A stretch of 64,000 nucleotides of DNA from Escherichia coli O127:H6 str. E2348/69 (lineage in GTDB: Bacteria; Pseudomonadota; Gammaproteobacteria; Enterobacterales; Enterobacteriaceae): NCBI RefSeq assembly GCF_000026545.1, contig NC_011601.1. One strand, 5' to 3'. Positions 1 to 3,000 of this stretch are shown here, piece after piece. Position 1 is the stretch's first letter. Each line of letters opens with the position of its first letter. Made by a program: the position numbers.

Positions 1-3000
1 CACACGACAAGGACTGCTGGCAAACGCCGCTTTGGCTTTTTGATGCACTGGATATTGAGTTTGGATTCTGGCTGGATTCGGCAGCGAGCGACAAAAATGC
101 TCTGTGCGCTCACTGGCTAACTGAGGCTGACGACGCGCTAAATTCTGAGTGGGTAAGCCACGGTGCAATCTGGAATAACCCACCGTACAGCAATATCAGG
201 CCGTGGGTGGAAAAAGCCGCTGAGCAGTGTATACAACAACGACAGACGGTAGTGATGCTTGTGCCAGAGGATATGTCAGTCGGATGGTTCAGCAAGGCTC
301 TGGAGAGTGTCGACGAAGTTCGTATTATCACTGATGGACGGATTAATTTTGTCGAACCATCGACAGGACTGGAGAAGAAGGGAAACAGCAAAGGTTCCAT
401 GCTGCTGATTTGGCGACCGTTCATCAGTTCTCGACGGATGTTTACTACTGTATCCAAAGCGGCATTGATGGCGATCGGGCAGGGCGTCAGGAGGGCAGCA
501 TGAGACGACAGCGACGAAGTTTCACCGACATCATCTGCGAAAACTGCAAATACCTTCCAACGAAACGCTACAGAAATAAACGCAAGCCAATCCCAAAAGA
601 ATCTGACGTAAAAACCTTCAACTACACGGCTCACCTGTGGGATATCCGGTGGCTAAGACATTGTGCGAGGAAAACAAGGTGATTGACCAAAATCGAAGTT
701 ACGAACAAGAAAGCGTCGAGCGAGCTTTAACGTGCGCTAACTGCGGTCAGAAGCTGCATGTGCTGGAAGTTCACGTGTGTGAGCACTGTTGCGCAGAACT
801 TATGAGCGATCCGAATAGCTCAATGTACGAGGAAGAAGACGATGAATGAGTTAATAAATGGCAATGCCATAAAAATGACAAGCATTGAAATCGCTGAGTT
901 GGTTGGTAAGCGTCATGACAATGTGAAACGTACCATCGAAACGCTGGCTAAAAATGGTGTTATCCGGCTTCCTCAAATTGAGGATTGTGGAAGAATCAAT
1001 GGGTTAGGCTTAAATCAAAGTTTTTGTGTGTATGTATTCGAAGGCGAACAAGGAAAGCGAGACAGTATTGTCGTTGTAGCCCAGTTGTCGCCGGAATTCA
1101 CGGCTCGCCTTGTTGACCGTTGGCGAGAGCTTGAAGAAGCTGCGGTTAATATCCCAAAAACGCTACCAGAAGCGTTGCGCCTTGCTGCTGACCTTGCTGA
1201 GCAGAAAATGCAACTGGAAAACCAGCTAGCAATTGCCGCACCTAAAGTTGAGTTTGCCGATCGCGTTGGCGAGGCCAGCGGAATTTTGATTGGAAACTTT
1301 GCAAAGGTTGTTGGAATTGGTCCAAACAAACTGTTTGCGTGGATGCGCGATCACAAAATCCTTATTGCTTCAGGTTCCCGGCGCAATGTGCCAATGCAGG
1401 AATATATGGATCGCGGCTATTTCACAGTGAAAGAAACAGCGGTCAACACAAATCACGGAATACAGATATCGTTCACCACAAAAATCACCGGGTGTGGTCA
1501 ACAGTGGCTGACCAGAAAGCTGCTCGATAACGGAATGCTGAAAGTAACAGGGGAGGCTGCTTAATGGCTAACCTACGCAAAGAAGCTCGCGGCAGAGAAT
1601 GCCAGGTACGTATTTACGGCGTATGCAATGGCAACCCTGAAACTACAGTTCTGGCACATTACCGGATGGCTGGAATTTGCGGAACGGGAATGAAGCCTGA
1701 CGACCTGATCGGCGCATGGGCTTGTAGCGCGTGTCACGATGAAATCGACCGACGCACCCATAACCTCGACAACAAAGACGCCAGACTTTACCACCTCGAA
1801 GGCGTGATCAGGACGCAGGCGATACTGCTGAAGGAGGGGAAGATTAAGCCATGAACGAATATCAGTTTGTGCTTCCATACCCGCCGTCGGTGAATACCTA
1901 CTGGCGAAGACGGGGAGGCCAATACTACATCAGCGATAAAGGCCAGAAATACCGAAAAGACGTTCAGCAAATCATTCGCCAACTCAAGTTAGACATTTTC
2001 ACCAAATCACGACTCCGTATCAAAGTCATCGCAGACGTTCCAGACTCCCGCCGCCGCGACCTCGACAACATCCTGAAAGGTTTACTCGACTCCCTTATCC
2101 ACGCCGGATTTGCGGAAGACGACGAGCAATTCGATGACATTCGCGTAATTCGTGGTGTGAAAGTACCAGGCGGAAGGCTTGGAATAAAAATCACCGAACT
2201 GGAGAACACATGAACAAAGCATTCGAACGATATATGCGCCAGCGTTATGGCAATCGCTACGATCTTACCCGCGATGCTTACGGCTTCTACTGTCGTGAGG
2301 TTGTGAAACGAATGTTTGAAGTGTGGTGTCATTGCAAAGGATAGAGGGGAAGACGATGAGACTCGAAAGCGTAGCTAAATTTCATTCGCCAAAAAGCCCG
2401 ATGATGAGCGACTCACCACGGGCCACGGCTTCTGACTCTCTTTCCGGTACTGATGTGATGGCTGCTATGGGGATGGCGCAATCACAAGCCGGATTCGGAA
2501 TGGCTGCATTCTGCGGTAAGCACGAACTCAGCCAGAACGACAAACAAAAGGCTATCAACTATCTGATGCAATTTGCACACAAGGTATCGGGGAAATACCG
2601 TGGCGTGGCAAAGCTTGAAGGAAATACTAAGGCAAAGGTACTGCAAGTGCTCGCAACATTCGCTTATGCGGATTATTGCCGTAGTGCCGCGACGCCGGGC
2701 GCAAGATGCAGAGATTGCCACGGTACAGGCCGTGCGGTTGATATAGCCAAAACAGAGCAGTGGGGGATAGTTGCTGAGAAAGAGTGCGGAAGATGTAAAG
2801 GCGTCGGTTATTCAAGAATGCCAGCAAGCGCCGCATATCGCGCTGTGACGATGCTAATCCCAAACCTTACCCAACCCACCTGGTCACGCACTGTTAAGCC
2901 GCTGTATGACGCTCTGGTTGTGCAATGCCACAAGGAAGAGTCAATCGCAGACAACATTTTGAATGCGATCACACGTTAGCGCCATGATTGCCACGGATGG

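Follow-up and report, generated by a model that had tools for sequence, protein, structure and literature searches.

ninE and ninF in an Escherichia coli lambdoid prophage: conserved micro-protein genes with Shine-Dalgarno-plus-overlap junctions

Two small ORFs between a phage dam gene and a roi-like gene in a lambdoid prophage of Escherichia coli O127:H6 E2348/69 are ninE and ninF, genuine but unremarkable genes, non-essential and catalogued in lambda-like phages for a long time. They lie near the start of the 64,000-nt stretch of contig NC_011601.1 that was analyzed (the window), where RefSeq has NinE and NinF at exactly 500..682 and 679..849. We hold with high confidence that this is a lambdoid prophage ninE-ninF segment whose micro-protein genes are connected by joints combining a Shine-Dalgarno (SD) site with an overlap, which would be translated by reinitiation, and that NinF carries a Cys4 core while NinE is helical. 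The two genes, their names, and their overlapping layout are already known; they belong to the textbook picture of the lambda nin region, and E2348/69 has them annotated. For lambda ninR, a "chain of interlinked genes" is attributed to Kroger and Hobom (Gene 1982) in PMC10695390 and PMC7166090.

The segment is therefore of little discovery value, and its remaining worth is descriptive, ninE and ninF being function-unassigned genes of the best-studied phage. In the literature searched, no study addressed what NinE or NinF does; what is on record comprises two-hybrid matches to head and tail proteins, non-essentiality, and no expression in a lysogen, and a paper re-using lambda ribosome-profiling data makes no mention of the nin genes. 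Lambda with the whole nin region deleted still makes plaques (PMC10695390), and any function of NinE or NinF is therefore accessory. To this record, the present survey adds that NinF has a sharply conserved Cys4 core and a conserved DPNxxM-acidic tail, that NinE is no zinc protein, and that the genes are no obligate pair, and it points to narrow targets for functional experiments on both proteins.

Identity and Layout of the Locus

The gene order in the source genome is O-P-ren-(ORF)-ninB-dam-ninE-ninF-roi-...-Q. Features of the segment are given below by position in the window; the three SD sites were assigned by reading the sequence.

3..503, + strand: 3′ part of a phage dam gene (N6-adenine methyltransferase; PF05869 Dam, E 8e-62)
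489..494, + strand: SD AGGAGG for ninE, within the dam codons, 5 nt ahead of the ninE ATG
500..682, + strand: ninE, 60 aa, basic micro-protein (PF05322; RefSeq WP_001254226.1, "NinE family protein", same coordinates)
667..671, + strand: SD GAGGA for ninF, within the ninE codons, 7 nt ahead of the ninF GTG
679..849, + strand: ninF, 56 aa, GTG start, putative Cys4 zinc-ribbon-type protein (PF05810; RefSeq WP_000566998.1, "protein NinF", same coordinates)
733..792, + strand: codons of the putative zinc-binding motif C19-x2-C22-x11-C34-x2-C37(C38) (conservation in relatives)
808..846, + strand: codons of the DPNxxM motif and acidic tail (DPNSSMYEEEDDE) of ninF (retained by most of the distant homologues)
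829..833, + strand: SD GAGGA for roi, inside the ninF acidic-tail codons
842..1564, + strand: roi-like gene with a Rha N-terminal region and a KilAC/ANT domain (PF03374, E 4e-32; PF09669, E 7e-8)
1564..1854, + strand: ybcO/DUF1364 (Pfam YbcO match and RefSeq; 1-nt overlap with roi)
1851..2213, + strand: rusA (Pfam RusA match and RefSeq; 4-nt overlap with ybcO)
2210..2344, + strand: 44-aa ORF (4-nt overlap with rusA)

The start of dam lies 24 nt before the window, and the RefSeq CDS WP_000153283.1 has the same end; the Q antiterminator gene follows the 44-aa ORF at 2356. A sequence-only reading of this DNA had called neither small ORF recognizable, which did not hold up: both match curated Pfam families well above cutoff and are annotated in GenBank and RefSeq. 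NinE matches PF05322 with an E-value of 6.7e-41 and 138.4 bits (cutoff 25), residues 1-58 aligning to profile positions 1-58 of 58, and NinF matches PF05810 with an E-value of 1.7e-12 and 47.4 bits (cutoff 27.5), residues 18-42 covering the whole 25-position profile. The proteins share 90% and 96% identity with lambda NinE and NinF and match PHROG 288 (E 2.5e-27) and PHROG 672 (E 1e-36), respectively. The same reading had described the first ORF as a basic protein of 60 aa, as its 18 K/R against 5 D/E bear out, and the second as a Cys-rich protein of about 56 aa, in which five Cys were indeed found. Its "antirepressor" is better named a Roi homologue, with a Rha N-terminus and a KilAC domain; counterparts are labeled Roi or anti-repressor in HK140, HK97, HK620, and HK022.

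In lambda, ninE (NP_040637, CDS 42090-42272) and ninF (NP_040638, CDS 42269-42439) show the same 4-nt overlap and occupy the same place between the replication genes and Q. The neighbors differ: upstream, dam (4-nt overlap) in the window replaces lambda ninD (34-nt overlap), while downstream roi (8-nt overlap) stands where lambda has ninG (11-nt overlap as annotated), and the resolvase function falls to RusA rather than to NinG/Rap. In HK140, HK97, and the Stx2-converting phage 86, the dam-ninE-ninF-roi segments have 93-97% nucleotide identity with the window and identical overlaps. HK140 and HK97 also keep the order Dam-NinE-NinF-Roi-YbcO-RusA-...-Q, although after rusA HK140 has ninH, and the 44-aa ORF occupying that place in the window is unrelated to it. 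The P22 nin region (ninD-ninE-ninX-ninF-ninG) has the same families and overlap style, and coordinates from the P22-like phage UAB_Phi20 give overlaps of 34, 4, 8, and 11 nt (PMC4837284). In P22, ninX separates a 58-aa NinE from an ATG-start NinF beginning "MLS", whereas in the window ninE and ninF are adjacent and encode a 60-aa NinE and a GTG-start NinF beginning "MID".

On our reading, ninE and ninF are conserved, non-essential, delayed-early micro-protein genes of the rightward (pR-type) early operon, placed after the replication genes and before the late-gene antiterminator Q. Promoter-like and terminator-like sites showed no excess in 1..3200. A minus-strand ORF of 174 aa (110..634) was rejected as a gene, as it matched no family and is antisense to two genes with good support.

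Conservation and Mosaicism across Related Loci

Comparison with related phages, which the sequence-only reading had set as the refuting test for the small frames, was carried out on 189 unique (distinct) loci and found them almost always uninterrupted: NinE is 58 or 60 aa long in 186 loci and NinF 56-61 aa in 184. Only ATG, GTG, and TTG occur as start codons, and ninF uses only GTG or ATG. Overlaps are kept as well. A 4-nt overlap joins the NinE start to the ORF before it in 136 of the 189 loci, and a 34-nt overlap does so in 37. In 187 loci NinF begins 4, 8, or 1 nt inside the gene ahead of it, and its own end overlaps the start of the following gene, mostly by 8 nt, be that gene roi, ninG, or another.

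In about half of the 189 loci, NinX, a 135-aa ORF, or a C5 methylase lies between NinE and NinF. The 58-aa and 60-aa forms of NinE and the "MID" and "MLS" N-termini of NinF switch almost perfectly with the neighbor, and the mosaic joints fall exactly at gene ends. The ninE/ninF boundary is a recurrent gene-insertion slot at which the overlap joints are always preserved. Genes could be inserted or swapped at the nin joints because all of the genes finish with the same kind of "SD plus overlap" joint, an arrangement that would keep expression intact.

Mosaic joints placed exactly at the ends of ninE and ninF also suit the view that the segment is kept chiefly as DNA, namely as "linker" homology for lambdoid module shuffling whose peptides have little function, as do 93-97% nucleotide identity among phages whose flanking genes differ and the dispensability of the lambda nin region for plaque formation. 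Selection, however, acts on the proteins: dN/dS is 0.30 for ninE and 0.33 for ninF with third-position variation in excess, nearly every locus has unbroken frames, and the Cys4 motif, E30, and the DPNxxM tail of NinF are retained at 23% identity. We consider the DNA-linker explanation improbable.

The same loci bear on whether NinE and NinF form an obligate two-subunit complex, or a toxin-antidote-like pair, with coupling giving a fixed stoichiometry. The proteins have opposite net charges (about +13 for NinE and -11 for NinF), their genes are neighbors with a 4-nt overlap, PMC4118853 remarks on the synteny of ninD-ninE-ninF, and overlapping unidirectional pairs are stated in PMC10666635 often to encode subunits of heteromeric complexes. 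Co-occurrence led us to reject the complex, since GenBank phage records number 432 with NinE against 229 with NinF. The intervening third gene in about half of the loci also counts against it, as do one locus with NinF and no NinE (L147) and one with NinE and a truncated NinF (L201). In a lambda two-hybrid map (PMC3224144), NinE and NinF bind other phage proteins, and no NinE-NinF interaction appears among the rows listed. An obligate pair is, on this evidence, very improbable.

Overlapping Junctions and Translational Coupling

At the dam/ninE joint, the dam TGA (501-503) and the ninE ATG (500-502) share the ATGA at 500..503, and at the ninE/ninF joint the ninF GTG (679-681) overlaps the ninE TGA (680-682) within the GTGA at 679..682; both overlaps had been read correctly from the sequence. 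For the third joint the ATG at 842 (842-844) was right, while the proposed 4-nt ATGA overlap was not: the TGA of "ATGA 842-845" is out of frame with the second ORF, so the ninF stop is the TGA at 847-849 and the real overlap with roi is 8 nt (ATGAATGA, 842..849). Consecutive overlaps along 500..2213 measure 4, 4, 8, 1, 4, and 4 nt, and the ninE, ninF, and roi starts are each preceded by an SD core within the upstream gene.

How far such a chain can be taken as evidence of genes was gauged with 30 first-order Markov random sequences of window composition, in which ORFs of at least 50 codons were scanned for two consecutive overlaps of 1, 4, or 8 nt. Chains with two overlaps arose at a mean of 1.5 per 64 kb without an SD requirement and at 0.03 per 64 kb when SD cores had to precede both starts, as compared with five SD-bearing chains on the + strand of the window and none on the - strand. 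Overlap alone is therefore weak evidence of genes, and the earlier argument that coupling shows the small ORFs to be real was weak as stated, though the genes themselves are real. Overlap together with an SD is significant evidence, and conservation is decisive. That the small ORFs are merely chance open frames draws on the random two-junction chains at about 1.5 per 64 kb without SD; against curated families, purifying selection, conserved SDs, and frames that stay open in hundreds of phages, its probability is practically nil, and the comparative data refute it.

Across the 189 loci, an SD core precedes the NinE start in 186 and the NinF start in 131, compared with a background of 9%; where ninE lies directly upstream, the ninF start has one in 91 of 92 unique loci. 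Strong SD cores before ninE, ninF, and roi, and before most starts in relatives, are what would be expected if the overlaps reflected genome compaction only and each cistron initiated independently at its own SD. Yet 57 of the 189 loci have a ninF ATG without a canonical SD core that still overlaps by 1 or 8 nt, which suggests dependence on reinitiation there, and the overlap persists with many different partner genes. Precedent at such junctions points the same way: PMC6728339 reports strict coupling in 13 of 14 tested ATGA/TGATG overlapping pairs, five E. coli pairs among them. We give compaction alone a real but minor chance of being the explanation.

The stop/start architecture of the nin junctions fits termination-reinitiation coupling, while the strong SDs would also permit independent initiation. 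The window shares with the pairs described in PMC6728339 the -4 and -1 nt overlaps and the intragenic SDs; two of the junctions, with 8-nt overlaps, differ from that class, and coupling is proposed here by analogy. By likeness to other E. coli gene pairs, a ribosome ending one nin cistron would reinitiate at the next, aided by the intragenic SDs, and the nin transcript would remain ribosome-covered down to Q. The overlaps might thereby be linked to protection against Rho-dependent polarity.

NinE

The NCBIfam subfamily model PRK09689 scored NinE at 37.6, below its cutoff of 88, and NinE is therefore not of the PRK09689 sub-type. An AlphaFold2 model of moderate confidence (mean pLDDT 78.7) predicts two helices, one at residues 8-16 and a long C-terminal one at residues 34-59, joined by a Pro/Lys-rich linker. 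Foldseek comparison of this model with the PDB returned nothing at E < 0.001 and only spurious helical matches, a profile search of PDB sequences gave no match, and the PADLOC anti-phage defense profiles gave zero matches. NinE as a zinc protein was considered and rejected because its CxxC (residues 13-16) is not conserved in the family: Salmonella-type NinE, found as intact variants in related phage loci, has IAMDNLIF or IALDNLIF at the CxxC site and zero Cys. As a very basic helix-linker-helix micro-protein, NinE would most likely have nucleic acid or an acidic partner as its ligand.

NinF

The zinc-ribbon-like Cys pattern noted for the second ORF proved truly conserved. Of the Cys residues, at positions 19, 22, 34, 37, and 38, the first three never vary and C37 shows at least 90% conservation, among close relatives as well as among homologues of 23-61% identity. 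Even at 23% identity, homologues retain E30 and the DPNxxM-acidic tail along with the Cys4 motif. With four putative ligand Cys, two knuckles, and family-wide conservation, NinF has the attributes of a C4 protein. It is probably a Cys4 zinc-ribbon-type micro-protein, with metal binding predicted from the motif.

In the AlphaFold2 model of NinF, short strands surround the first knuckle and a helix follows the second; confidence is moderate, the NinE and NinF models having pLDDT 76-79. Sub-threshold Pfam matches were all to zinc-ribbon families, namely DZR_2 (17.6 bits, cutoff 27), DZR (16.4, cutoff 27.3), and Zn_ribbon_3 (13.4, cutoff 27). Foldseek searches of the model against the PDB and BFVD found nothing at E < 0.001 (best PDB E-value 0.86), the nearest folds being generic zinc domains or other NinF proteins, none of them significant, and a profile search of PDB sequences gave a best, nonsignificant E-value of 0.1 (8q5b). 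Because no family or fold match is significant, "zinc-ribbon-like" describes NinF without assigning it to a family. C4 micro-proteins such as the CPxCG-related zinc finger protein of PDB 8q5b resemble NinF in their size of about 56 aa and their pair of CxxC knuckles; NinF differs in having its own N-terminal helix and DPNxxM-acidic tail, in the lack of a significant match, and in that its zinc binding is putative.

Searching 1.84 billion cluster representatives with a NinF HMM profile retrieved only 71 matches at E ≤ 1e-3, none of which linked NinF to any family of known function. The NinF Cys motif is present in every one of the 27 full-length matches that were aligned, and all three matches followed back to their contigs adjoin nin-region genes. 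Among PADLOC defense profiles, NinF reached only an E-value of about 0.015, to Cas12f and Cas12u1 zinc-ribbon regions.

The DPNxxM-acidic tail is possibly a docking motif because it is kept in homologues of 23-40% identity and also in a locus (L244) where the next called gene lies 189 nt downstream without overlap. Its most likely role would be to dock NinF on a partner protein. More specifically, and as a tentative proposal that we rate on the low side, the tail may be a short linear docking motif through which NinF binds and modulates or inhibits a specific host or phage DNA-processing protein; if true, a lambda gene that has been an orphan for over 40 years would gain its first function.

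As a separate observation, the GA-rich codons of the NinF acidic tail also serve as the SD of the next cistron.

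Identity and gene organization

The segment that follows the phage Dam methylase holds ninE and ninF, members of the classic lambda ninR chain; it is a real and ordinary feature already known from the annotation of this genome. RefSeq places a "NinE family protein" and a "protein NinF" exactly where the sequence-only reading had drawn two small ORFs (ORF1 and ORF2). That reading had considered neither recognisable, a view overturned by identification of ORF1, over its full length, as Pfam NinE (PF05322, E 6.7e-41) and of ORF2 as NinF (PF05810, E 1.7e-12), the lambda proteins being 90% and 96% identical, respectively. 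Each ORF also matches PHROGs of no assigned function. A 551-bp query found matches in 416 GenBank phage records, and NinE, NinF, Roi, and Dam are annotated under the best of them (HK140, Stx2 phage 86, HK97, HK620, and others); in HK140, gene order and overlaps are identical to those of the window. The window itself matches E. coli O127:H6 E2348/69 at 100% identity, and in that genome RefSeq gives the lambdoid prophage order cI-like, cro-like, cII, O, P, ren, ninB, dam, ninE, ninF, roi-like, DUF1364, rusA, Q, lysis genes, and terminase.

Gene anatomy was read from the sequence of window 1..2400 and a mechanical ORF list, which bear out the positions of both ORFs and the ATGA (500..503) and GTGA (679..682) overlaps.

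Features of the dam-ninE-ninF junctions
Upstream edge to 503, + strand: phage Dam methylase (PF05869, E 8e-62), entering the window from upstream, TGA stop 501-503
489-494, + strand: Shine-Dalgarno (SD) core AGGAGG for ORF1, inside the preceding gene
500-682, + strand: ORF1 (60 aa, very basic), ATG 500-502 to TGA 680-682, ATGA overlap with the dam stop
667-671, + strand: SD core GAGGA for ORF2, inside the preceding gene
679-849, + strand: ORF2 (56 aa), GTG 679-681 to TGA 847-849, GTGA overlap with the ORF1 stop
829-833, + strand: SD core GAGGA for the next gene, inside the preceding gene
842, + strand: ATG start of the next gene, 8-nt overlap with ORF2 (ATGAATGA)

The third junction, previously taken for another 4-nt ATGA, is an 8-nt overlap because the TGA within ATGA 842-845 lies out of the ORF2 frame, the in-frame stop being 847-849. 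The gene that begins there (842..1564, +) is homologous to Roi of HK022/HK97; its N-terminus is of the Rha type and its C-terminal domain KilAC/ANT. It had been called an antirepressor beforehand, a label that derives from the family name only. An SD precedes its ATG at 842 and none precedes the internal ATG at 875, where the Rha domain match begins. The chain continues toward Q through ybcO, rusA, and a 44-aa ORF, with overlaps of 1, 4, and 4 nt. This last ORF (2210..2344, +), ATGA-coupled to rusA and occupying the position of HK140 ninH, is hypothetical in RefSeq (WP_001030161.1) and had no match in a Pfam comparison. On the minus strand, a GTG-start 174-aa ORF (110..634) covers parts of dam and ninE in antisense orientation. 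Its family search gave no credible match (best, Tat, E 0.03) and it lies opposite two well-supported genes, so a chance frame is the most likely reading.

Conservation of the frames and their joints

Coupling had been offered as the argument that the small ORFs are real, and by itself it does not suffice. The chance control used 30 random sequences, generated by a first-order Markov model with the composition of the window, and considered ORFs of 50 codons or more. In these, single junctions with 1-, 4-, or 8-nt overlaps arose about 24 times per 64 kb and two-junction chains 1.5 times, so overlap alone is insufficient as proof. Chains with an SD core before both starts have a chance expectation of 0.03 per 64 kb; the window holds five on the + strand and none on the - strand.

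Comparative evidence is decisive. A survey that used the window NinF and one NinF and one NinE of the Salmonella type as seeds fetched 240 IMG/VR loci and also took in three annotated loci and window positions up to 6 kb; counts rest on 189 non-identical NinE..NinF configurations. Frames broken in relatives would have spoken against the ORFs; instead, NinE is 58 or 60 aa long in 186 of 189 loci and NinF 56-61 aa in 184, with only ATG, GTG, and TTG as start codons. Third codon positions are the most variable (dN/dS 0.30 for NinE, 0.33 for NinF). Both ORFs are accordingly real, and the reading of them as chance frames is excluded.

The joints are conserved as well. NinE starts with a 4-nt overlap on the preceding ORF in 136/189 loci and with a 34-nt overlap, the lambda ninD type, in 37/189, while NinF shares 4, 8, or 1 nt with the gene before it in 187/189. 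An SD core precedes the NinE start in 186/189 and the NinF start in 131/189, against a background of 9%. At its end, NinF runs into the next gene, mostly by 8 nt, whichever gene that is: roi with the exact N-terminus of the window in 54 loci, ninG with the lambda N-terminus in 53, and others elsewhere. In lambda (L002 2430..2440), ninF and ninG overlap by 11 nt as annotated, a form found in six loci ("MMAKPA"), whereas in most lambda-like loci surveyed an ATG precedes the NinF stop by 8 nt (ATGGCTAA), yielding "MAKPAR".

Insertion slot and probable translational coupling

The ninE/ninF boundary (window 679..682; surveyed loci L084-L243) is a recurrent site of insertion. In roughly half of the 189 loci a gene lies there, encoding NinX, a 135-aa ORF, or a C5 DNA methylase, and the insert always opens at the NinE stop (ATGAcaATG) and overlaps the NinF start (ATG) by 8 or 1 nt at its end. 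With near-perfect correlation, adjacent loci pair a 60-aa NinE with a GTG-start "MID..." NinF, and separated loci a 58-aa NinE with an ATG-start "MLS..." NinF; the window has the adjacent form. Although the charges of NinE and NinF are complementary, an obligate complex of the two is highly improbable: their genes are frequently separated, loci with a single one of them exist, and GenBank phage records contain NinE in 432 cases and NinF in only 229. This imbalance, together with that among Stx-named phages (more than 100 NinE records, only about a dozen of NinF), argues that they are not an obligate pair.

Our literature search found no function reported for NinE or NinF. The lambda nin region is dispensable for plaque formation, and the CRISPRi "essentiality" of nin genes reflects polarity on Q (PMC10695390). 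Both genes are silent in a lysogen (PMC12922286), and ninD-ninE-ninF synteny has been described (PMC4118853). Two-hybrid screening lists head protein A and tail proteins M and U as NinF partners, and U for NinE (PMC3224144). NinE and NinF are most probably accessory delayed-early micro-proteins made from the rightward early operon.

From the combination of overlap and SD, we infer termination-reinitiation coupling at the joints, which might keep ribosomes on the message as far as Q and so bring an anti-polarity benefit; the joints could also serve as interchangeable sockets for gene cassettes. Elsewhere, 13 of 14 overlapping pairs tested were coupled, five E. coli pairs among those included (PMC6728339). 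Independent initiation of each cistron is the less probable reading, though one carrying appreciable weight.

NinE and NinF proteins

NinE shares the conserved core (L/I)PTKR-R-K-P-P-ES-V-TF-Y...W-R. Its CxxC was ruled out as a zinc site because the Cys are replaced by other residues in intact variants (Salmonella database proteins and related phage loci). AlphaFold2 (pLDDT 78.7) predicts two helices, the first short and the C-terminal one long, joined by a linker rich in Pro and Lys; fold comparison and a PDB search gave no matches.

For NinF, 1.84 billion cluster representatives were searched with a profile, and only 71 proteins reached E <= 1e-3. Among close relatives, C19, C22, and C34 are invariant and conservation of C37 is 90% or higher. 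Of the 71 proteins, 26 full-length ones (23-61% identity to the window NinF) retain both C-x2-C-x11-C-x2-C and E30, and in most of these an acidic run also follows a DPNxxM motif. Three distant NinF were traced to contigs, one within a full NinB-Dam-NinE-...-NinF-NinG-...-Q region and the others, on short contigs, beside NinX and beside a C5 methylase plus NinG. That the ninE-ninF segment serves as a DNA linker only is unlikely, being contradicted by purifying selection and by this protein-motif conservation. The earlier "zinc-ribbon-like" stands as a description, supported by the four Cys and by sub-threshold Pfam matches that are all zinc ribbons; it does not extend to family membership, and metal binding is putative. 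The AlphaFold2 model (pLDDT 75.6) has helices at 8-16 and 35-41, with a short hairpin around the first knuckle between them, and ends in a floppy tail. Foldseek returned nothing significant, its top matches being RING, LIM, PHD, or ribosomal zinc proteins, or NinF from Erwinia phages.

The acidic tail is a protein feature and more than a side effect of the SD downstream, because one homologue (L244) keeps it without overlap, the next called gene beginning 189 nt downstream. In the window, 808..846 (+) is dual-use: the acidic-tail codons GAG GAA GAA GAC GAT GAA also give the SD at 829-833, and the stretch supplies the start codon of the next gene. Decayed and rearranged variants also occur: L201 (2638..2760) has NinF replaced beyond the third codon, L147 carries NinF without NinE upstream, and two database proteins (P0206, P0212) have NinB/Dam or replication-protein fragments fused in frame to the NinF C-terminus.
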